The notes under the pieces are model-generated. The model worked only from the letters and a program-made list of their open reading frames with translations, made no database searches and had not been told where the DNA came from. Of a stretch of 64,000 bases of DNA, positions 6,033 to 61,866 are shown in pieces. The stretch comes from an uncultured Gammaproteobacteria bacterium (GTDB taxonomy: Bacteria; Patescibacteriota; Microgenomatia; UBA12405), in the NCBI GenBank assembly GCA_964408995.1, contig CAYPBP010000002.1, positions 32,491 through 96,490 of the forward strand. The letters are read 5' to 3'. How positions within the stretch are numbered: position 1 is the stretch's first letter; every line of letters begins with the position of its first letter. A program made the position numbers and the translations under genes.

Positions 6033-6065
6033 GTATATACGCCCCGTACCACGGGGCGTATATAC
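6033..6065 (-). terminator. Intrinsic terminator downstream of the Lon-like gene (repeat family E)
   Basis: 13-bp stem tatatacgcccc(g) / (c)ggggcgtatata with loop taccac, followed on the minus strand by A/T-rich sequence. A near-identical stem recurs at 52424-52455. Confidence 0.6.
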
Positions 6066-7661: not shown

Positions 7662-7680
7662 TTACTTATTTTAGCAACAA

Positions 7681-7702
7681 AAACCCCGACTTGCGTCGGG
7701 GT
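7681..7702 (-). terminator. Intrinsic terminator downstream of pnp
   Basis: aaccccgacttgcgtcggggtt hairpin, followed on the minus strand by ttttgttgc. Confidence 0.65.
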
Positions 7703-11280: not shown

Positions 11281-11346
11281 CCGCATTAACGGGACTAAAA
11301 CCCACTCCTCTCAGATTTCATCTGAGGGACCTCCCTTGACAAGGAG
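11281..11346. repeat. Structured GC-rich multi-hairpin element (repeat family D, copy 1); could serve as a 3'UTR or terminator
   Basis: Three consecutive hairpins: cccgcattaacggg, cctctcagatttcatctgaggg and cctcccttgacaaggagg. On the minus strand the last is followed by a U-run. A related copy lies at 57500-57548. Confidence 0.45.
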
Positions 11347-11359
11347 GCTTTAAATATTT

Positions 11360-12500: not shown

Positions 12501-13934
12501 CTACTTCGTGTTATAGGCTATTATAACATCATTTATCTTAAAATCAATATAGGGCTTGAAAGTCATGCCACATTCAGTTCCAGACTTGATTTTTTCGATA
12601 ATATTTTTAGCTTGGTGGATACCTTCAACCTTGGTATCTTTGATGATTTTGTCATCACGTTTTAAGTGAATTAAATCCCCTTTACAGATTTCTCCTTTAG
12701 TACATTGAACGCCAGAAATACGAACTTTATCGATTTTGAATTCAGCTTTAATCAAACCTTCTCCAAGAACAGTTTCGTCAATGGTAGGTTCTAAAAGATG
12801 TAAAACTTGGTTTTGAATATCTTCAATAATTTCATAAATAATTCTGGATTCAAAAATTCTGACCTTAGTATTCTCGGCTATTTGAGCAATGTGCTTTGGG
12901 GTAGAAACATTGAAGGCAAAAATTTGAGCTTTGGAAGCTTCGGCCAAGAAAACATCATTGTCAGAAACAGCACCAATCCCAGAAGAAATTACAATTACAT
13001 CTTCATTAAAGCTATTTTCTAGAGCTTCTAAAGTACCCCTAACATCGGCTTTTAAGATTACTTTTAACTTAGGATTTTCTTCGGTAGATTCGAGTAAAAC
13101 TCGTTGTTCTTTACTTGGTTGTAAACATTCAGATTTAGTAGAAATAACGAGGCTGCTAACTGGTGGAACTTTTTCAAAGCCTAAAACTTCAACTGGAGTG
13201 CTAGGACCAGCTTCTTTTAGAGAAACACCATTACAATCTATCATGGCTTTAACTTTACAAAGAATGTCTTCACAGTAAACAATGTCACCAACACGGAGAG
13301 TACCGTTGTTGACGATTAAGGAAGCCACTGGACCTCTAGCTTTATCGAGACGAGATTCGATAATAACAGCTTCAAAACAACCAGCTGGATCAGCTTGTAA
13401 CTCAAGAATTTCAGCATTTAATAAAATCATTTCTAAAAGATCTTCAATACCTTGACCAGTTTTGGCAGAAACTGGAAGAACAGCTAATTGACCACCATAT
13501 TCTTCGGGAGTATAGCCTAATTCAACTAATTGACCTTTAACTTTATCAGGAGAAGCATTTTCTAAATCAATTTTGTTCATGGCCACAATGAAAGGAATAT
13601 CGGTTTTTTTGATATGTTCGATACATTCTTTGGTTTGAGGCATGATGCCTTCGACAGCAGAAACAACTAAAATTATCATGTCGGTGGCTTTGGCACCACA
13701 AGCACGCATGTTTATAAAAGCAGCATGGCCGGGAGTATCGATAAAAGTGATTAGTTTAGCTTCGCCGTTTTTTTCAGTAACTTTAGCTTGATAAGCACCA
13801 ATGTGTTGAGTAATACCACCGGCTTCTTTTTTCCAGACATTAGTAGAACGAATCTTGTCTAAAAGAGAGGTTTTACCATGATCAATATGACCCATGACGG
13901 CAACGATCGGTGGACGAGTTAATTTATTAGTCAT
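12501..13934 (-). CDS. infB: Translation initiation factor IF-2 (short form: G domain plus C-terminal domains)
   Basis: [17 protein letters not shown] and NKID G-motifs. I place the start at the ATG (complement of 13932-13934), preceded by GGGGAG 9 nt upstream. The track's longer version begins with GTG inside a hairpin. Confidence 0.88.
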
Positions 13935-13939
13935 ATTTT

Positions 13940-13972
13940 CAATCTCCCCTAGCCCCTCTTTCACAAGAGGGG
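13940..13972. repeat. Family A GC-rich palindromic element, copy A1, in the nusA-infB intercistronic region
   Basis: caatctcccctagcccctctttcacaagagggg. The same ~35-nt motif occurs at 49741, 57555 and 61263. Confidence 0.7.
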
Positions 13973-15943: not shown

Positions 15944-15954
15944 AAAAACCATTC

Positions 15955-15982
15955 ATTCACCCCCGCTGTTGCGGGGGTGAAT
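15955..15982 (-). terminator. Hairpin between dnaK and dnaJ (attenuator or terminator)
   Basis: tcacccccgctgttgcgggggtga, a perfect 10-bp stem, followed on the minus strand by a T-rich run. Confidence 0.55.
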
Positions 15983-15993
15983 AGTAATATTTT

Positions 15994-38696: not shown

Positions 38697-40496
38697 TTAT
38701 TTAAACTTTTTGAAAATAATTACTTTGGGATGATCGTAGACTGAAAAAGCCTCTTCAGCAATATCATCACGAAGATAAACTCCAGGATAAAGACAAGTAT
38801 TATCAACTTCAAACCATTTATTTTTAGTTTGAGAATAGGGAAAGTTGGTTGGCCCAATATAAATACAATTTTTTAAAAATGGAAGGGATAGGCCAGGATA
38901 AGAGTTAAATTCAATTTCTTTTTTGAAATCTGATTTGCCGTCAAAAAGATCTTGATAATATTTGGTAGCAATTGGATATCTGTTTGGAACAAGAGGAATA
39001 GAAGACCAGAGACGATTGGAAGTAAGAAAAATATAATCAGTCTTTTTTAAGGTTGAATTTATTTTTTGCCATTTTTCAGAAGTATCCGGATCATAAAGAT
39101 GAAGATTTTGGTTTTGGTAAGGATTAAAAGATAGAGGTAAAGCATCATCCCAATATTCATTGGCGATAGTTGAGGATGATGGAATATTTTTATAAATCCA
39201 ATTTGAGGCTTGAACGCGAGAGTGAGGTCGAGTGTAGATTGATATAAAGATAATGGCATAAGAAAAATGAAAGAACAAAATAAGATAAAGTATTTTTTTT
39301 GATAAATTATTTTGAAAGATTAAAGTGACAATTATGGTTATAAATGGATATATGACCAAGAAATATCTCATAGTAGCAGTGAACTGATTGCCTTGTTGTA
39401 TGAAAAGAAAAATAGTCCAAAAAATACAAAGGAAAATTGTAAAATTTTTAGAATTTAAAAATATTTTCTTAAAAACCCTCTTGTTGTCCCGCAGATGCGG
39501 GACAACTTTCTCCCTTAAAAAAGGAGACGTTATTTTTTGATATATATATTTTATAAAAAACAAAAGAAAAACAAAAGATAAAGGTAAACCTAGTCCCCAT
39601 AAAACAATATTTTTTAGCGGATATAAAATTGGAGTTTTACTGAGCCATTGAATTTCTGGGGGATAAAAAACATCTTTATTAATTAAAATTGATTTTAAAT
39701 ATACAAGACTTTTTATAAAGTCTGGATTAATCTTAATTAAAGAAATGAAACTATATGGCTGAAAAATACGAAAAACAATAAAAGAAATAAAAAGAGATAT
39801 AAATATTTTTAAAAAGATAAGAGTCTTCTTTTTAAAAATTTGATAAATAAAAAACAATAAAATAACAGGAGAAAAAAGAAATGCAGAAATTTTACAAGTT
39901 AAACTTAGACCAAAGGTAATAGAAGCAAAAATTAAAAAAATATTCTTATTAGTTTTTAGCCAATAAGAAAAACAAACAAATGATAGTAATATAAAAAAAG
40001 TAAGAAAAGTATCAACGGCAAAAAAATGTGAAAGTTGAATTGGCAAAACAGTAAAAGCATAAAGTAAACTTGGTAAAAATAAGAAAAACTTTTTGTTTTT
40101 GGAAATGAATAATTTTGCTAGAAAATATAAACTGAAAATATTGAGGGAATCAAAAACAGATGATAAAGCGCGACCTAATAAATGAATTTTGTCATAGCCT
40201 TCTATATTAAAAATATTACCCAATGTTTTAACTAAAAATAATGGGAAGGTGCCATAAACAAAAAAATTAAATTGTTGATAATTAAACGGATTTAAGGGTG
40301 AAGATTTGGTATCAAAATATTGAACAATGGAACTGGGAAATTCAATCGTAGAAATTATCATGGTTAAAAATCTTTCGTCTGGATGAAGATGCTGATTTTG
40401 ATCCCAATTTAGTCCAAAGAGACGAATTGATAGAGCTAAACAAAAGATAATAAAAACTATAAAAAGATGATGATTAAATATTTTTTTGACAAACAT
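38697..40496 (-). CDS. Polytopic GT-C-fold membrane glycosyltransferase-like protein (paralog 2, 599 aa)
   Basis: N-terminal loop GLNWDQNQHLHPDERFL (a DE motif after TM1), many TM helices, and a C-terminal domain homologous to that of paralog 3. Contains the in-frame GC-rich hairpin at 39483-39506. Confidence 0.55.
   Translation of the reverse strand: MFVKKIFNHHLFIVFIIFCLALSIRLFGLNWDQNQHLHPDERFLTMIISTIEFPSSIVQYFDTKSSPLNPFNYQQFNFFVYGTFPLFLVKTLGNIFNIEGYDKIHLLGRALSSVFDSLNIFSLYFLAKLFISKNKKFFLFLPSLLYAFTVLPIQLSHFFAVDTFLTFFILLSFVCFSYWLKTNKNIFLIFASITFGLSLTCKISAFLFSPVILLFFIYQIFKKKTLIFLKIFISLFISFIVFRIFQPYSFISLIKINPDFIKSLVYLKSILINKDVFYPPEIQWLSKTPILYPLKNIVLWGLGLPLSFVFLLFFIKYIYQKITSPFLREKVVPHLRDNKRVFKKIFLNSKNFTIFLCIFWTIFLFIQQGNQFTATMRYFLVIYPFITIIVTLIFQNNLSKKILYLILFFHFSYAIIFISIYTRPHSRVQASNWIYKNIPSSSTIANEYWDDALPLSFNPYQNQNLHLYDPDTSEKWQKINSTLKKTDYIFLTSNRLWSSIPLVPNRYPIATKYYQDLFDGKSDFKKEIEFNSYPGLSLPFLKNCIYIGPTNFPYSQTKNKWFEVDNTCLYPGVYLRDDIAEEAFSVYDHPKVIIFKKFK
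39483..39529. repeat. GC-rich palindrome (family B, copy 1) in-frame within the GT-C gene
   Basis: gttgtcccgcagatgcgggacaac, a 10-bp stem, then tttctcccttaaaaaaggagacg. Encodes ...REKVVPHLRDNK... Related to gtcccgcagcggcgggac at 51477-51494. Confidence 0.6.
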
Positions 40497-48645: not shown

Positions 48646-50079
48646 ATGAACTCAAAAAAATTTTTTATAACTACCCCAATTTATTACATTAACGATATTC
48701 CTCATATAGGACATACCTGTAGTACTGTGGCGGCGGATATTGTGGCCCGATTTCACAGAGCAAAAAATGAAGAAGTATTTTTTCTAACTGGCACTGATGA
48801 ACATGGACAAAAAGTAGCTGAACCAGCAATCAAAGCAAATCTAAATCCAAAAGAATATTGTGACAGTATTGCTCCCCGATTTGAAGAAGCTTGGAAGGCT
48901 TTAAATATTAGTCATGATTTTTTTATTAGAACAACCGATTCTAGACATGAAAAAATAGTCAATGAATTTTTACAAAAAATTTATGACAAGGGTGATGTTT
49001 ATAAAGCAAAATATGAAGGCTGGTATTGTGTCGGCTGTGAAAAGTTTTTAACTGAAGTGGAATTAGTTGACAAACATTGTTCTCTTCATCCACCAGAGAA
49101 AACTGTTTTTAAAAGTGAAGAAAATTGGTTTTTTAAATTAAGCAAATATATTCCTCAAATTATTAAATTAATTGAGGATGATAAAACTAATTATATTTTC
49201 CCTGAAGGAAAAAGATTAGAAATATTATCAAAACTTAAAAAAGAAGAAATTAGAGATATTTCAATTTCCAGAGAAAACGTGGAATGGGGCATTCCTACAC
49301 CTTGGGATTCTAAACAAACTGTCTATGTGTGGTTTGACGCTTTAATTAATTATTACAGTGCAACTCAATTTGTTGAAGGTAAAAAAGATTTTTGGCCAGC
49401 AAGTGTTCACTTATTAGCTAAAGATATTTTGTGGTTTCATACAGTTATTTGGCAAGCCATGCTTTTATCAGCTGACTTACCATTACCTATAAAAACTTTT
49501 ACTCATAGTTTTTATTTAATTGATGGTAATAAAATGTCAAAATCTTTGGGAAATGTAATTAGCCCAGGTCAATTAGTAGAAACTTTTGGAGTTGATGGAT
49601 CTAGGTATTTAATTGCCAGATCTTTTCCTGGAGAAAATGATAGTGATGTAGGAATTGAAAGATTTAAGGAAAAATATAATGCTGATTTAGCAAATAATTT
49701 AGGGAATTTAATTTCTAGAGTAGCAAAGTTAGCTGAAGGCCAATCTCAATCTTCCCCCGACCCCTTCTTTGACAAGACGGGGAGTTTTAATGAAGAATTT
49801 GAAAACTTAATTGAGAAATTTGATTTTAATCAGGCGATTGCTTTAGTTTTTGATAAATGGATTGATAGTTCAAATTTAAAATTGAATCAAACTACACCAT
49901 GGAAATTAGAAAAAGATAATACTGATAGAATTACAGTCTTAAATGAATGTATCAAAAACATTTTGAAAGCTGCTTTCCATTTGCAAATTTTTATGCCAGA
50001 AGTGGCCCAAAAAATTGAAAATTGTTTCAAAGATGAAGTTAAACCACTTGAGGAATCTTTATTTCCAAGAATAAAATAA
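48646..50079 (+). CDS. metG: Methionyl-tRNA synthetase (short form, no C-terminal tRNA-binding appendix)
   Basis: HIGH (PHIGHTCS) and KMSKS (KMSKSLGN). Contains the in-frame family A element at 49741-49783. Confidence 0.95.
   Translation: MNSKKFFITTPIYYINDIPHIGHTCSTVAADIVARFHRAKNEEVFFLTGTDEHGQKVAEPAIKANLNPKEYCDSIAPRFEEAWKALNISHDFFIRTTDSRHEKIVNEFLQKIYDKGDVYKAKYEGWYCVGCEKFLTEVELVDKHCSLHPPEKTVFKSEENWFFKLSKYIPQIIKLIEDDKTNYIFPEGKRLEILSKLKKEEIRDISISRENVEWGIPTPWDSKQTVYVWFDALINYYSATQFVEGKKDFWPASVHLLAKDILWFHTVIWQAMLLSADLPLPIKTFTHSFYLIDGNKMSKSLGNVISPGQLVETFGVDGSRYLIARSFPGENDSDVGIERFKEKYNADLANNLGNLISRVAKLAEGQSQSSPDPFFDKTGSFNEEFENLIEKFDFNQAIALVFDKWIDSSNLKLNQTTPWKLEKDNTDRITVLNECIKNILKAAFHLQIFMPEVAQKIENCFKDEVKPLEESLFPRIK
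49741..49783. repeat. Family A GC-rich palindromic element, copy A4, in-frame in metG
   Basis: caatctcaatcttcccccgaccccttctttgacaagacgggga, which encodes QSQSSPDPFFDKTG in the anticodon-binding domain. Confidence 0.65.
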
Positions 50080-51429: not shown

Positions 51430-51472
51430 AAGTTATTATAACAAATCCACCCCTACCCCTCCTTTGATCCTC

Positions 51473-51509
51473 CTTCGTCCCGCAGCGGCGGGACTACGGA
51501 CGGACGAAG
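51473..51509. repeat. GC-rich palindromic element (family B, copy 2) downstream of folD
   Basis: cttcgtcccgcagcggcgggactacggacggacgaag. Alternative nested stems, preceded by a C-rich tract. Confidence 0.55.
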
Positions 51510-51525
51510 CAATAGGGGGTAATTT

Positions 51526-52423: not shown

Positions 52424-52455
52424 TTTATTTAATTATATACGCCCCTCGGTGCGGG
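52424..52455 (-). terminator. Intrinsic terminator downstream of map (repeat family E, copy 2)
   Basis: tatatacgcccctcggtgcggggcgtatata, the same 12-bp stem as at 6033-6065. Confidence 0.6.
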
Positions 52456-52467
52456 GCGTATATATGT

Positions 52468-55112: not shown

Positions 55113-55699
55113 GTTTGACGAGTTTCAACTAAAGAAAAACCCTTAAACTCAAGAGCTTCTTGAAAACTCTTTGTAACTTCGGCGATATCTTTGACATCAA
55201 TTGATCTAACAAAAGTTTCAGGATTAATAGTTTTTAAAAGTTCGACGGCATTGATTGGTTGGTTAAGATTTCCAAGTGGTGTTGATTTCGTTTGTGAACC
55301 TTTTGGAGTGGTGGGGCTGGTTTGACCAGTGGTTAAACTGTAAAGAAAATTATTAGAGACAAAAACAGTAATATCGATATTGGCCCGAGCAGCAGTAATT
55401 AAATGATTTAGACCTTCACCATAAATACCACCATCTCCACCAATAGCACAAACAGTAAGATTGGGGTTGGCTATTTTTTCGCCCATAGCCATGGCAATAC
55501 AACGACCATGAAGAGTATGAACTCCGTAGGTTTTTAAAAAATCAGCCATATTACCAGCACAACCAATGTCATAGTTCATGACAAGATCAGATGTTTTGAT
55601 TTTAAGGTTATTGAAAGCAGTTTGAAGAGCAGCAAAAACTAAATAATTATGACAACCAGGACACCAAGTTGGAGCTATTTGGGATTTATAATTAATCAT
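55076..55699 (-). CDS. 2-oxoacid:ferredoxin oxidoreductase, beta (TPP-binding) subunit
   Basis: CPGCH, GDGG and TPP-binding fold motifs. Confidence 0.85.
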   Translation of the reverse strand: MINYKSQIAPTWCPGCHNYLVFAALQTAFNNLKIKTSDLVMNYDIGCAGNMADFLKTYGVHTLHGRCIAMAMGEKIANPNLTVCAIGGDGGIYGEGLNHLITAARANIDITVFVSNNFLYSLTTGQTSPTTPKGSQTKSTPLGNLNQPINAVELLKTINPETFVRSIDVKDIAEVTKSFQEALEFKGFSLVETRQTCIAFGKQLIVG

Positions 55700-57426
55700 A
55701 GTGTTAAACCCTCTGCCCTTCGGGCATCTCCCTTAACAGGGCGACTTTTTAATAATTTAATAATTTCTTCTGGAAAGAATGGACGACCATTGTTTTTGTT
55801 AATAATTTTGCTTGGACTAAATTCAAATTGAGACTTTAAAAGAGTGACTAATTGATTAGTTTCATTATTTTCGATGACAATAATTTTTTCAAAAGCATCA
55901 ATTATTTTTTTAATATCTGGATTGATTGGCCAAAGAGTTTTTATTTGTAAGAAAGCGAAGTCTTCTTTATTTTTTATTAATTTCAAAGCTTCTAAAATGG
56001 CACCTTTTGGAGAACCCCAACTAATAATTAATTTAGTGGCTTTTGAAGATCCAAATAAATTTGGCTTTGGACAAATTTTTAAAGCAGTTTTTAATTTTAA
56101 TAATCTTTTTTGAGACATTTTTTCGGAAAGAGAGGCATCTTCCGTTGAAAAACCAACTTCATCATGTTCGTAACTATTGGCTAAAAATTCACCATTTGGA
56201 GTACCTGGAAGAGTAAGAGGAGAAATACCGTCTTTGGTAAAGGCATATCGTTTGAAACTGTTTTCTTCAACTTCATTTAAGATTTTACCTTTGTCTATTT
56301 TTACTTCCATACTTGGAAAATATTTGGTACTAGCACTTGATTCGGCAACTAGTTTGTCACTTAAAACAATGACTGGTGTTTGAAGAATAGCCGCTAAATC
56401 TAAAGATTTGTGACCTAATTCAAAAGATTCATTAATATCACCTGGGGCGACAACAACTTTTGGGAATTCACCATGACCAGAATAAATGGCATGAAATAAA
56501 TCTCCTTGACTAGTCCAAGTGGGTAAGCCAGTGGCTGGACCTGGACGAGATACTAAATAATAGACCATACCGATTTCAGAAATGCCACAAAAACTAACAG
56601 CTTCGTTCATAAGGGCAAATCCACCACCTGAAGTGCCCGTAGCAGCTCTAGCACCAGCAAAAGCGGCACCAGCAGCCATGTTGGCAGAAGCAATCTCGTC
56701 TTCTGGATGATTTACGTTTAATTTAAATTCTGTTTGTTTACTAGCTAGGAAATGAAGAGCACCAGTGGCTGGAGTCATAGGATAGGCTGAATAAAAATTG
56801 CCACCACCTTTGATAAATCCCCAACCATAAGCTTCGTTACCATCATAAAAACCTTTTTTGGTTTTTTTAGTTGGTTTTTTTATTTTGATTTGATATTTAG
56901 AAAAATTTTCTTTGGCATAATTATAAGCAAGAGTAAAAGCAGCTAAATTTACATCAGCATGTTTTCCATAAGATTGAGAGATGTGATTTTTAGCTAAATC
57001 AATATCTAAATCATAAAGATAAGCAGCAACACCTAGACAAAGAGTATTCATAACCAAGGGATTGCCGGCTTGAGTAGCCATATCTTTTAGAGGTAGATTT
57101 AAGAAATTAGCTTTGCTTTTAACTTCGGTAAAGTCTTCATCAGAAAAAACTAAAGTCTTTTTAGTAAATTCGTCTTGATGTTGTTGCCAATGGTTTGGAT
57201 AAACTGAAAAGAATAAATCAACATTAAAGTGAGTTGAAAAAACTTCTTGATCAGAGAAAGTAATTTGATAGGTATTATGACCACCTCTAACCAAAGATGG
57301 ATATTCACTGTAATCAGATAGATGGAAACCATGATCAATTAAGAGTTTTGAAAAAATTTGACCAGCAGACTTGATTCCGGAACCAGCCGGACCAGAGATT
57401 TTGATGGTGGAAAAATTTAAGCTCAT
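55696..57426 (-). CDS. 2-oxoacid:ferredoxin oxidoreductase, fused gamma-alpha subunit
   Basis: N-terminal gamma-domain (GPAGSGIKSAGQIF) followed by the alpha-subunit core (YPMTPATG). A 4-bp overlap with the beta gene. Confidence 0.85.
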   Translation of the reverse strand: MSLNFSTIKISGPAGSGIKSAGQIFSKLLIDHGFHLSDYSEYPSLVRGGHNTYQITFSDQEVFSTHFNVDLFFSVYPNHWQQHQDEFTKKTLVFSDEDFTEVKSKANFLNLPLKDMATQAGNPLVMNTLCLGVAAYLYDLDIDLAKNHISQSYGKHADVNLAAFTLAYNYAKENFSKYQIKIKKPTKKTKKGFYDGNEAYGWGFIKGGGNFYSAYPMTPATGALHFLASKQTEFKLNVNHPEDEIASANMAAGAAFAGARAATGTSGGGFALMNEAVSFCGISEIGMVYYLVSRPGPATGLPTWTSQGDLFHAIYSGHGEFPKVVVAPGDINESFELGHKSLDLAAILQTPVIVLSDKLVAESSASTKYFPSMEVKIDKGKILNEVEENSFKRYAFTKDGISPLTLPGTPNGEFLANSYEHDEVGFSTEDASLSEKMSQKRLLKLKTALKICPKPNLFGSSKATKLIISWGSPKGAILEALKLIKNKEDFAFLQIKTLWPINPDIKKIIDAFEKIIVIENNETNQLVTLLKSQFEFSPSKIINKNNGRPFFPEEIIKLLKSRPVKGDARRAEGLTL

Positions 57427-57499
57427 CTGACTATTTTACTACATATTTGTTGAATTTTATAAAAAATGATTAAAACTCCCTTTGCCCTTAATAAAAACC

Positions 57500-57548
57500 C
57501 ACCTTCCCTGAAGGGCCCCTTCCTCCCTTGAAAAGGGAGGTCTATAAA
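57500..57548. repeat. Family D multi-hairpin element (copy 2) in the korA / DEAD-helicase divergent intergenic region
   Basis: aaaacccaccttccctgaagggccccttcctcccttgaaaagggagg, similar to 11300-11346. Confidence 0.5.
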
Positions 57549-57554
57549 GTTTTT

Positions 57555-57589
57555 CAATCTCCCCCTGCCCCCTCTTTCACAAGAGGGGG
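57555..57589. repeat. Family A element, copy A2 (intergenic, directly after the family D copy)
   Basis: caatctccccctgccccctctttcacaagaggggg. Confidence 0.7.
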
Positions 57590-60599: not shown

Positions 60600-61802
60600 T
60601 CATTTTTTCTTCTCTTTTAAATATTTTTTATCTTTTAGTTTTTCAGGCAAAAGGCTTTCTTTTGTGTACATTTCATAGTCTTTGCCATAATCTAATTCTT
60701 TCATTAACTTAGTTTCGGCGTTGCGGAGATTAAGCGGTATTGGTAGATTACCAAACTGCTGAACATCGGCAAGAGCGGCTAAATAAGCATCATAAGCAGA
60801 ACGATCTTTAGGACTTTTGGCTAGATAAACAACTCCATGAGCTAGGTTTTCTCGACACTCTGGATAGCCAATTGTTTCAACAGCTCTGAAAACTTCATTG
60901 GCCATCATTAAAGCTGAAGAATTGGCAATACCAATATCTTCACTGGCAAAAATAACCATACGACGGGCAATAAATTTTGGGTCTTCGCCAGCATCAATCA
61001 TTCTGGCTAAATAATAAAGAGCAGCATCTGGATTACTGGCTCGCATAGATTTTATAAAAGCAGAAATGGTATTGAAGTGATCCTCCCCTTTTTTATCGAA
61101 ACGTAAAAAACTATTTTGAAGAGTTGATTTTAAGTTTTCTTTAGAAAGATCGTTATATAAAGTGAAAGCATTATCAATCATGGTTAGAGCCTGACGAGCA
61201 TCACCATTGGCCATTTGAATTAGCCATTCTTTGGCATCTTTTTTGATAGTTAATTTTTTATTCAATCTCCCTAAATCCCTCTTTGACAAGAGGGACTTAT
61301 TAATGACATCAATTGCTCTAGTGATTATTTTGTCAATATCTTCATCTGACAATTCTTTGAGGGTGAAAACTCGACAACGAGATAAGAGTGGAGAAATAAC
61401 TTCAAAACTGGGATTTTCGGTGGTGGCACCGATTAAAGTTAGAAGACCGGATTCTACATAGGGTAGCAAAAAATCTTGTTGAGCTTTATTAAAACGATGA
61501 ATTTCGTCTAAAAAAAGAATTACTCTTTGAATAGGTCTGGCTTGAGCAATAATTTTTTTAATATCGTCTTTGCTAGCAGAAACAGCTGATAATTCAAAAA
61601 TCTGGGCATCTGTTTCTTTGGCAATAATTTTGGCTAAAGTGGTTTTACCAACCCCTGGAGGACCCCAAAAAATCATAGAAAAGAATTGTTTGGATTCGAT
61701 TAATTTCCTTAAAGGTTTTCCCTCCCCAACTAAATGAGATTGACCAATAAATTCATCAAGGTTTTTAGGACGTAGAAGAGAGGCTAGCGGTTGAGTAAGC
61801 AT
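60600..61802 (-). CDS. rarA: Replication-associated recombination protein A (MgsA/RarA AAA+ ATPase)
   Basis: LRPKNLDEFIGQ, Walker A GPPGVGKTT, and the MgsA C-terminal helical domain. I place the start at MLTQPL. Contains the in-frame family A element. Confidence 0.9.
   Translation of the reverse strand: MLTQPLASLLRPKNLDEFIGQSHLVGEGKPLRKLIESKQFFSMIFWGPPGVGKTTLAKIIAKETDAQIFELSAVSASKDDIKKIIAQARPIQRVILFLDEIHRFNKAQQDFLLPYVESGLLTLIGATTENPSFEVISPLLSRCRVFTLKELSDEDIDKIITRAIDVINKSLLSKRDLGRLNKKLTIKKDAKEWLIQMANGDARQALTMIDNAFTLYNDLSKENLKSTLQNSFLRFDKKGEDHFNTISAFIKSMRASNPDAALYYLARMIDAGEDPKFIARRMVIFASEDIGIANSSALMMANEVFRAVETIGYPECRENLAHGVVYLAKSPKDRSAYDAYLAALADVQQFGNLPIPLNLRNAETKLMKELDYGKDYEMYTKESLLPEKLKDKKYLKEKKK
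61263..61295. repeat. Family A element, copy A3, in-frame in rarA
   Basis: caatctccctaaatccctctttgacaagaggga, which encodes (reverse strand) ...KSLLSKRDLGRL... in the linker between the AAA+ and C-terminal domains. Confidence 0.65.
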
Positions 61803-61866
61803 GTTTTGGGTTTTATTTGGGTAATAACCCATTTTAACATACTAAAAATAATTTTTAGTTATTATC

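Follow-up and report, generated by a model that had tools for sequence, protein, structure and literature searches.

The repeat described here, a GC-rich unit of about 35 nt dispersed in a 64,000-nt stretch of contig CAYPBP010000002.1 (assembly GCA_964408995.1, positions 32,491 to 96,490 of the forward strand; this whole stretch is the window, and positions are counted from its first letter), has its closest described counterpart in BoxC of Escherichia coli. BoxC was rediscovered as the PIT ('potential intrastrand triplex') element and later as TMECO (Holder et al. 2015, PMC4666352; also Hoyne and Maher 2000). TMECO has the 37-nt consensus 5'-CCCTCNCCC-N3-6-GGGNGAGGG-N3-GGGNGAGGG-3', in which the second loop is TTA or CCG, and its triplex has been shown by circular dichroism and nuclear magnetic resonance, with melting temperatures of 70-82 C (PMC4666352). 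The copies are always intergenic, show no strand bias, have no transposase, and are linked to local genome variability (PMC4666352). Triplexes of the purine motif do not form in RNA (PMC4666352).

Two further groups of palindromic repeats invite comparison, namely the REP (repetitive extragenic palindromic) sequences with their REPIN doublets and the RPEs (Rickettsia palindromic elements), and an earlier, sequence-only reading of the window had taken the present element for a miniature REP/RPE-type repeat. RPEs are palindromes of about 100-150 bp that are restricted to Rickettsia, whose sequence is unrelated to that of the element, and which occupy AT-rich reduced genomes. They are inserted in frame in essential genes at surface and linker positions, where they add a short peptide to the protein, and they are also found between genes. 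We know of no description of three-block mirror symmetry or strand polarity for RPEs.

The evidence assembled below makes it probable that the element is a dispersed, non-autonomous repeat of Patescibacteria, built as a BoxC-like unit of three parts with the potential to form an intrastrand triplex.

Structure and location of the four copies

The GC content of the window is 31.4%, and the core CCCTCTTTSACAAGAGGG, with up to three mismatches allowed, matches it four times against 0.04 matches expected by chance. The positions and common plus-strand orientation given by the sequence-only reading were confirmed in the sequence, and its judgement that such copies are unlikely to arise by chance in a low-GC background holds as well. 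The four simple copies are single, spaced at least 3.7 kb apart, and never arranged as inverted doublets. On the strand as written, each unit runs from a pyrimidine tail through a short loop (TAA, TAG, TGA or AAA) to a pyrimidine (Y) arm, a T(G/C)AC loop and a purine (R) arm. Where a 6-bp stem with a ttCACAag loop had been proposed, the stem in fact comprises 8-9 bp and closes a 4-nt loop; copies 1 and 3 have TCAC there, the other two TGAC. The predicted energies of the DNA hairpins range from -5.9 to -10.2 kcal/mol.

Copy 1 (13940-13972, plus strand) lies between nusA and infB, both of which are on the minus strand, and takes up most of their 48-nt spacer (neighbouring genes throughout were named by their Pfam domains). 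Its tail ATCTCCCC (13942-13949), loop TAG (13950-13952) and Y arm CCCCTCTT (13953-13960) are followed by the loop TCAC (13961-13964) and the R arm AAGAGGGG (13965-13972), and its reverse complement reads hairpin-CTA-GGGGAGATTGAAAAT-ATG. As had been stated, the minus strand carries GGGGAG 9 nt ahead of the infB start codon at 13934. The Shine-Dalgarno function attributed to this hexamer is, however, opportunistic at best, since a relative (locus L079) has an AT-rich spacer of 21 nt at its nusA-infB junction that contains neither the element nor a Shine-Dalgarno sequence, and since the orientation of the element is independent of transcription. The infB gene itself (12501-13934, minus strand) encodes a short IF-2 of 477 residues, which begins directly with the G domain and has no long N-terminal region.

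Two of the copies reside within genes and in frame, which the sequence-only reading had overlooked. Copy 2 (49741-49783, plus strand) is contained in metG (48646-50079, plus strand), and consists of the tail ATCTTCCCC (49749-49757), loop CGA, Y arm CCCCTTCTT (49761-49769), loop TGAC and R arm AAGACGGGG (49774-49782), with one T.C mismatch in the stem. It encodes the peptide QSQSSPDPFFDKTGS in the linker of methionyl-tRNA synthetase (MetRS), between the catalytic domain, which ends near residue 359, and the anticodon-binding domain, which starts near residue 377. A 6-nt tandem duplication (CAATCT CAATCT, 49741-49752), which adds a further Gln-Ser, is absent from a 91%-identical allele (L117). 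Copy 4 (61263-61295, plus strand) lies antisense within rarA/mgsA (60600-61832, minus strand), where its translation, KSLLSKRDLGRLN, separates the AAA domain of RarA from the lid domain; its segments are the tail ATCTCCCT (61265-61272), loop AAA, Y arm TCCCTCTT (61276-61283), loop TGAC and R arm AAGAGGGA (61288-61295).

Copy 3 (57555-57589, plus strand) is intergenic and stands between two divergent genes, a pyruvate:ferredoxin oxidoreductase-type gene (55696-57426, minus strand) and a DEAD-box helicase gene that begins at about 57736 on the plus strand. Its tail ATCTCCCCC (57557-57565) is joined by the loop TG to the Y arm CCCCCTCTT (57568-57576), and the loop TCAC connects the latter to the R arm AAGAGGGGG (57581-57589).

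Several conventional explanations of the hairpin were considered and rejected. It is not an intrinsic terminator, as no run of T follows it: the top strand continues with AAAATT, AGTTTT, TGAAAA or CTTATT, and the bottom strand with CTAGGGGAG-type sequence. A promoter reading of the TTGACA in the loop was set aside because, by inspection, its distance to TATAAT-like hexamers is inconsistent. No tRNA or tmRNA gene was found anywhere in the 64 kb, and the element is thus not associated with either. The Rfam covariance models likewise gave no match at the gathering threshold over the 64 kb, and only chance-level matches around copy 3 in E-value mode.

Distribution in Patescibacteria

The MetRS and RarA homologues assign the window to Candidatus Shapirobacteria, in the Microgenomates group of the Patescibacteria or candidate phyla radiation (CPR). 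When the 18-nt hairpin was scanned in one genome per species, at least 115 loci were recovered; the counts for the family rest on the matches listed, and among these a tail of the form (C/A)AATCTCCC stands 1-8 nt upstream of the hairpin at about 79 of 115 loci. A failure to recur beyond the four copies had been named beforehand as refuting a dispersed repeat, and the family passes this test: the tail-bearing loci extend over many genomes, with titles naming Shapiro-, Peri-, Parcu-, Uhr- or Gracilibacteria or simply 'Patescibacteria', as well as low-GC metagenome-assembled genomes (MAGs) titled 'Gammaproteobacteria', in which protein segments are 50-84% identical to those of Shapirobacteria loci. 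The 36 tail-less loci among the matches listed belong to unrelated taxa and look like chance matches to the 18-mer.

From the sequences themselves, the Gammaproteobacteria titles of the element-bearing MAG loci are probably wrong. About 27 element loci (in the range L019-L115) are titled 'uncultured Gammaproteobacteria' and have GC contents of 29-38%, with outliers at 0.43 and 0.54; approximately 17 of them contain protein segments that are 46-84% identical to those of Shapirobacteria, Patescibacteria or metG-centred loci.

The element occurs once per 16 kb where it is densest and once per 40 kb where it is sparsest. No match to it was found among the viral contigs of IMG/VR, and no earlier description of it was found in the literature on the CPR.

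Covariation of the tail with the stem

The sequence-only reading had described 'CAATCTCCCC' as a conserved flank of the hairpin. Conserved it is, but it is more than a flank, as its sequence mirrors that of the stem and changes along with it. In the subfamilies compared, tail and Y arm always form a mirror repeat: the tail TCTCCCC accompanies the Y arm CCCCTCT, TCTCCCT accompanies TCCCTCT, TCTTCCCC accompanies CCCCTTCT, ACCCTTTCCC accompanies CCCTTTCCCT, ACCCCTCT accompanies TCTCCCCT, and ATCCACCCCT accompanies TCCCCTCCTT. A G-C pair in the stem corresponds to C in the tail, and an A-T pair to T or sometimes A.

This symmetry was quantified with hairpins that were selected solely by Watson-Crick pairing, a pyrimidine arm and a T(G/C)AC loop, and which comprise 29 distinct arms. 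The test was carried out in a C/non-C code, in place of a nucleotide-level test that was diluted by chance hairpins and compound copies. The mirror identity between tail and arm is 0.883, compared with 0.763 +/- 0.016 for permuted pairings, and none of 5000 permutations reaches the observed value; alignment of the tail to the arm as a direct repeat yields only 0.71. Of 90 unique copies of family A, 73 have C-runs of equal length in tail and stem (Spearman 0.79).

The mirror relation has a consequence for folding. Since the tail mirrors the Y arm, one strand can fold back twice into an intramolecular triple helix, following the triplet code of the pyrimidine motif on the written strand (C+.G-C, T.A-T) and that of the purine motif on the complementary strand (G.G-C, A.A-T, T.A-T), where interchange of A and T is also accommodated. 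The complementary strand reads 5'-CCCCTCTT-GTCA-AAGAGGGG-TTA-GGGGAGA-3'. In all four copies blocks 1 and 2 are Watson-Crick partners and block 3 mirrors block 2 in the triplet code, which is the class II three-block layout. A finder built on these three blocks returned exactly the four simple copies, with 8-9 triplets, zero or one Watson-Crick mismatch and no mismatch in the Hoogsteen code, and nothing in shuffled sequence. ViennaRNA, which cannot model triplexes and folds DNA by Watson-Crick pairing only, left the tail unpaired in four of five folds.

Compensatory changes, which the sequence-only reading had suggested looking for in aligned copies, were observed in copy 4 and its subtype. In copy 4 the outer C-G pair of the stem is replaced by T-A and the tail carries the matching change from C to T, and members of the same subtype elsewhere pair these two changes in the same manner. 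The loops are also conserved across subfamilies, as TGAC in the hairpin and as TAA, AAA, CAA or TGA between tail and stem.

Insertion into spacers and genes

Comparison of filled and empty orthologous sites shows that the unit was inserted into pre-existing DNA, both in spacers and in gene linkers. At the site of copy 4, the rarA orthologue of L202 (93% protein and 90% nucleotide identity) lacks a clean 45 nt, and the site is empty in most Shapirobacteria orthologues, which share a conserved ..KVLKTKI.. sequence; in other lineages, different subfamily members or frames occupy the same spot of the rarA linker. The corresponding metG peptide, SSP[DNGS]PFFDKTG, is present in roughly a third of the 120 closest homologues, while many others are empty and still others have different members in the linker (NLPKSLFDKRD, KPFPNPSLDRAG, QSTPTPSFDKEG). 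Nested or variant versions also occur at the interdomain linkers of homologues, as PFFD-PPLRRAG-KTG in metG and as ASQSWWAGKTG in metG/rarA linkers. These positions in MetRS and RarA are either insertion hot spots or the only sites at which the element is tolerated. Further examples are provided by the folD-map spacer, which measures 3-18 nt in many relatives and contains family members in L136, L139, L144 and L152, and by the tatD gene of L156, where the element is inserted in frame near the N-terminus (at about 6933).

Approximately 31 of 82 copies (about 38%) are inside long open reading frames (ORFs), 14 in sense and 17 in antisense orientation; in the window the proportion is two of four. 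The peptides that arise from intragenic copies include ISPNPSLTRGE, NLPKSLFDKRD, QSPPTPSLTRGG, SLLSKRDLGRL, PLVKEGLGEI and PSCQRGVRGDL. The element is therefore not a protein motif, because the same DNA is read in several frames to give at least six different peptides. That it is found between genes as well as in genes of no relation to one another, in either orientation and in several frames, also bears out the earlier proposal of a dispersed repeat that is not part of a single protein or RNA family.

In the position profile, the background level of conservation is reached 3 nt ahead of AATCT and 2 nt past the stem, which delimits a unit of about 33-40 nt. No target-site duplication is visible in this profile or in the filled and empty pairs; the AT-rich flanks at rarA permit a possible AATA/TTAT repeat, which we do not trust. 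A miniature inverted-repeat transposable element was likewise rejected, as the unit is asymmetric, with a tail at one end only, and has no terminal inverted repeats and no target-site duplication. Strict concerted evolution is clean in only one pair of genomes (L139 and L144), several others having mixed subfamilies, and for this reason our claim is restricted to orthologous sites that hold different subfamily members.

Strand polarity and nucleotide conservation

The orientation of the element was compared with the GC skew of the flanking 4 kb on either side, the element itself being left out. The skew is positive in the orientation of the element for 62 of 75 copies (p = 8e-9), with a mean of +0.14. 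Within genes that are co-oriented with the element it amounts to +0.24, and within oppositely oriented genes to +0.08 (positive in 49 of 62). Because the sign of the skew holds in genes of both orientations, the polarity follows the G-rich and C-rich strands of the genome and not transcription; the coding DNA next to the element is 43% co-oriented and 57% opposite.

The same polarity was observed in other samples. All triplex-type motifs of all loci divide 128 to 35 (p = 1e-13). Loci centred on metG, which were picked regardless of the element and amount to 1.0 Mb, contain 25 motifs, 23 of them on the same strand as metG, although these are partly orthologous and not independent. On the 949-kb contig JBAYUY010000001.1, all 12 copies sampled between 128 and 949 kb lie on one strand. 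In the window, all eight members (four simple and four compound) are on the plus strand; around copy 1 the skew is near zero, and the profile of the window is ambiguous to the left of about 23 kb. The cumulative GC skew of the window has its minimum near 22-23 kb, and to the left of this point nearly all genes are on the minus strand.

By the usual rule, the G-rich strand would be the leading one. A complete Microgenomates genome has a monotonic cumulative GC skew, possibly as a result of unidirectional replication (PMC7143001), and a polarity confined to one strand along most of a chromosome is consistent with this. The C-rich strand of a related Microgenomates genome carries its rRNA genes and the majority of its genes (PMC7143001), and for Ch65, another Microgenomates genome, a split of 46:54 between genes on the G-rich and C-rich strands has been reported.

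At the nucleotide level, the metG element varies at only 2 of 36 sites among five orthologues with 70-91% protein identity, and both of these sites are in loop 1. At third codon positions, 1 of 12 varies within the element compared with 18 of 22 in the flanks (p = 5e-5); the left flank of the window sequence is shifted in this comparison by the 6-nt duplication, and the other four sequences vary there too. With the metG element near-invariant and the flanking synonymous sites saturated, a GC-rich 36-mer is thus held constant in a 31%-GC genome. Either the nucleic acid itself is under selection, or the copies are corrected in some way.

Compound relatives and other repeats in the window

When the three-block finder is allowed a long first loop, four compound members are recovered in the window, against 0.05 in shuffled sequence. 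All of them are on the plus strand, and their first loops comprise 12-27 nt instead of the 2-3 nt of the simple copies. The member at 11300-11347 has the tail ACCCACT, a 23-nt loop with a small hairpin of its own, the Y arm CCTCCCT, the loop TGAC and the R arm AAGGAGG. At 39474-39527, the tail AACCCTCT is followed by a 27-nt loop with the nested hairpin TTGTCCCGC-AGAT-GCGGGACAA, the Y arm TCTCCCTT and the R arm AAAGGAGA. The member at 55708-55744 combines the tail ACCCTCT, a nested GCCC-TTCG-GGC hairpin, the Y arm TCTCCCT, the loop TAAC and the R arm AGGGCGA; it encodes the last 13 or so residues (..PVKGDARRAEGLTL) of the oxidoreductase-type gene (minus strand, 55696-55745), and the orthologue in L120 is 13 residues shorter. 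The fourth, at 57496-57541, adjoins copy 3 and contains the tail AACCCACCT, a small nested hairpin, the Y arm TCCTCCCTT, the loop GAA and the R arm AAGGGAGGT; its subtype also occurs in L127, L128 and L131. A further compound relative at 51443-51520 (plus strand) has a larger insertion, apparently within the hairpin loop.

The window also contains a second family of repeats, consisting of long perfect palindromes of the form TATATACGCCCC-N7-GGGGCGTATATA that are intergenic and followed by T-rich sequence (6033-6065 and 52433-52466). These palindromes, which may be bidirectional terminators, are also present in the folD-map spacer of L118 and L119. Other terminator-like GC hairpins are located at 912-947, 7678-7701 and 15952-15985. 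As a lead only, the reverse-complemented unit, in which the hairpin is followed by ..GAGATTGAAA (for example at 13936-13949), resembles the layout of a type I-C CRISPR repeat, a hairpin with a TGGATTGAAAC handle; no arrays were seen.

Mechanism and alternative explanations

On the reading that the element is a BoxC-like repeat with triplex potential, the top strand would fold by C+.G-C and T.A-T triplets and the complementary strand by G.G-C, A.A-T and T.A-T triplets, the layout of the latter being the purine-motif class II architecture that is known to be stable for BoxC/PIT/TMECO. The relevant form would be single-stranded DNA at the replication fork. Two origins of the polarity are then conceivable. 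Either insertion itself is confined to one orientation, or copies in the other orientation are not tolerated, since the polymerase would stall at the very stable purine-motif fold on the exposed template and such copies would disappear; a block to DNA polymerase by PIT elements has been seen in vitro. The copies in genes occur where they leave the frame open, and presumably where the protein can accommodate 11-15 additional residues. If the GGGGAG of the reverse-complemented tail occasionally serves as a ribosome-binding site, infB being an example, this would be a by-product.

A number of observations weigh against this reading. The intrastrand triplex is a potential that is suggested by the symmetry of the sequence and by analogy with TMECO, and the physical evidence for such a fold comes from TMECO and not from the present sequence. 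The top-strand fold may moreover be weak, as 4-6 consecutive C+.G-C triplets are disfavoured at neutral pH. Common descent of the copies inflates the covariation statistics, and truly independent changes of tail and stem perhaps number 10-15, not 90. The loop sequences are conserved even though a triplex has no need of them, and therefore point to a sequence-specific partner. While TMECO is always intergenic and without strand bias, about 38% of the copies of the element are in genes, in frame, and the strand ratio is 62:13. The argument from a tolerated orientation could run either way, given that the rRNA genes and the gene majority of the related Microgenomates genome are on the C-rich strand. 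Finally, the filled metG allele exchanges 21 nt for 33 nt, which is not a clean addition and is unexplained by simple insertion.

The element could instead be a REP/REPIN-like or IS200/IS605-derived hairpin, mobilized in single-stranded form when a Y1 (HUH) transposase supplied in trans acts on the template of the lagging strand, with the tail as cleavage or guide site and the mirror symmetry incidental. IS200/IS605 elements have an orientation bias relative to strand asymmetry, and the strong bias of the present element is of this kind; a hairpin with a conserved 5' flank, the loss of conservation within about 3 nt of the unit with no target-site duplication, the apparently precise filled and empty alleles, and subfamilies in which a fixed stem mismatch recurs at several loci, as if copied from master copies, are equally in keeping with it. 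We nevertheless consider transposase-driven movement unlikely. The tail changes together with the entire stem in mirror register, and nothing of the kind would be expected of a guide or cleavage site of 4 nt; GTAG is absent, the copies are single, and many are intragenic. A phmmer search with IS200 and IS608 TnpA queries found no RAYT/Y1 or other IS200/IS605-type transposase ORF in the 1.85 Mb of loci covered, which is a weak point against it, and a related Microgenomates genome has been reported to be without mobile-element genes (PMC7143001). A module acting in RNA, in which a stabilizing intercistronic hairpin together with a strong Shine-Dalgarno sequence (hairpin-N3-GGGGAGAUUGAAAA-AUG) adjusts translation or the decay of the mRNA, would account for the 9-nt spacing at infB, for the GGGGAG located 2-25 nt before the start codon of a long ORF in about 15-20 of 82 copies, and for the several copies that occupy an entire spacer between co-directional genes. 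It is very unlikely all the same, as orientation is independent of transcription (43% versus 57%, comparable to the 46:54 of Ch65), gene copies are 14 sense and 17 antisense, the GGGGAG at folD is about 20 nt from the ATG, and the L079 junction manages without element or Shine-Dalgarno sequence; in addition, no Rfam family matches and purine-motif triplexes do not form in RNA (PMC4666352).

The constancy of the metG element in the face of saturated synonymous sites, the conserved loops that structure alone does not need, the nearly identical sequence in several CPR phyla, the genome-wide single-strand polarity, and the different subfamily members held by the same linkers and spacers in different lineages could together be explained if selection maintained the element as a polar signal in chromosomal DNA that a conserved protein of the host recognizes, in the manner of a Chi, KOPS, Ter, priming or pausing site, with insertion as merely the source of new sites. 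However, orthologous sites are mostly empty in relatives, and no individual site is therefore required; the density differs between 1 per 16 kb and 1 per 40 kb, no partner protein was identified, and known polar signals are words of 5-23 nt in duplex or single-stranded DNA, not three-block folds. A signal of this type accordingly appears improbable to us. There is also some small chance that the two ideas apply jointly, and that the element is a conserved, polar, triplex-forming signal in single-stranded DNA of Patescibacteria with one-strand G/C asymmetry, and possibly unidirectional replication, which is selected on one template strand, has its loops read by a host factor, and is seeded even in essential genes. 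If this were true, the three-way covariation would be evolutionary evidence for a DNA triple helix that functions in vivo.

Intrastrand triplex repeats of the BoxC/PIT/TMECO kind have been known for decades. What is new here is that the third-strand segment changes with the stem in many diverged subfamilies, which is comparative evidence that the triplex potential itself is preserved, together with survival in essential genes at a nucleotide conservation well above that of neighbouring synonymous sites, and a near-complete strand polarity in genomes with an unusual one-strand compositional asymmetry. The element is moreover an unannotated feature of CPR genomes that adds 11-15 residues to proteins such as MetRS and RarA, and the resulting length variants could pass for real protein differences. 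It can supply ribosome-binding sites, and it is a marker for the replication strand and for lineage tracing in metagenome-assembled genomes.

Comparison with described repeats

The assignment to a REP/RPE-type repeat proved correct in that the element is dispersed and inserted in frame in the manner of RPEs. It is not extragenic, however, it has no GTAG, no RAYT was found in the 1.85 Mb of loci searched, and it is far shorter than an RPE. As in RPEs, the in-frame insertions affect metG, rarA, tatD and many other ORFs, in both orientations, but the unit has about 33-40 nt and is not a 100-150-bp sequence of the RPE family. Like REP and REPIN, it is a GC-rich hairpin of about 35 nt whose 5' flank is conserved, it has subfamilies particular to lineages, it persists in genomes for a long time, and it is frequently located between co-directional genes. 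In contrast to these, its flank consists of (C/A)AATCTCCC followed by a spacer of 1-8 nt and mirrors the stem, and its copies are single, not inverted doublets, and often intragenic.

The likeness to BoxC/PIT/TMECO is closer. Both are GC-rich, strongly conserved and dispersed units of about 35-37 nt, and on the complementary strand of the element both consist of a Y stem, a 3-6-nt loop, an R stem, a 3-nt loop and an R third strand. The second loop is often TTA, and the loops are short (here 4 nt in the hairpin and 2-3 nt between tail and stem). Neither is known to have an associated transposase or a copying mechanism, and in both the neighbouring regions vary between relatives. The blocks themselves differ, being CCCCTCTT, AAGAGGGG and GGGGAGA in the element as opposed to CCCTCNCCC, GGGNGAGGG and GGGNGAGGG in TMECO, and the TMECO consensus CCCTCNCCC-N3-6-GGGNGAGGG-N3-GGGNGAGGG has no match in the window. 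Unlike TMECO, the element has an AT-rich CPR bacterium as its host, and it comprises many subfamilies with covariation of tail and stem as well as compound forms with a hairpin nested in the first loop. Because the architecture is the same and the block sequence different, we class it as BoxC/PIT-like but outside the TMECO sequence family. The element is thus a potential triplex repeat of BoxC-like design that occurs across the CPR, a further form of a known type that is poorly understood, and it combines this architecture with RPE-like insertion in genes and a strong polarity.

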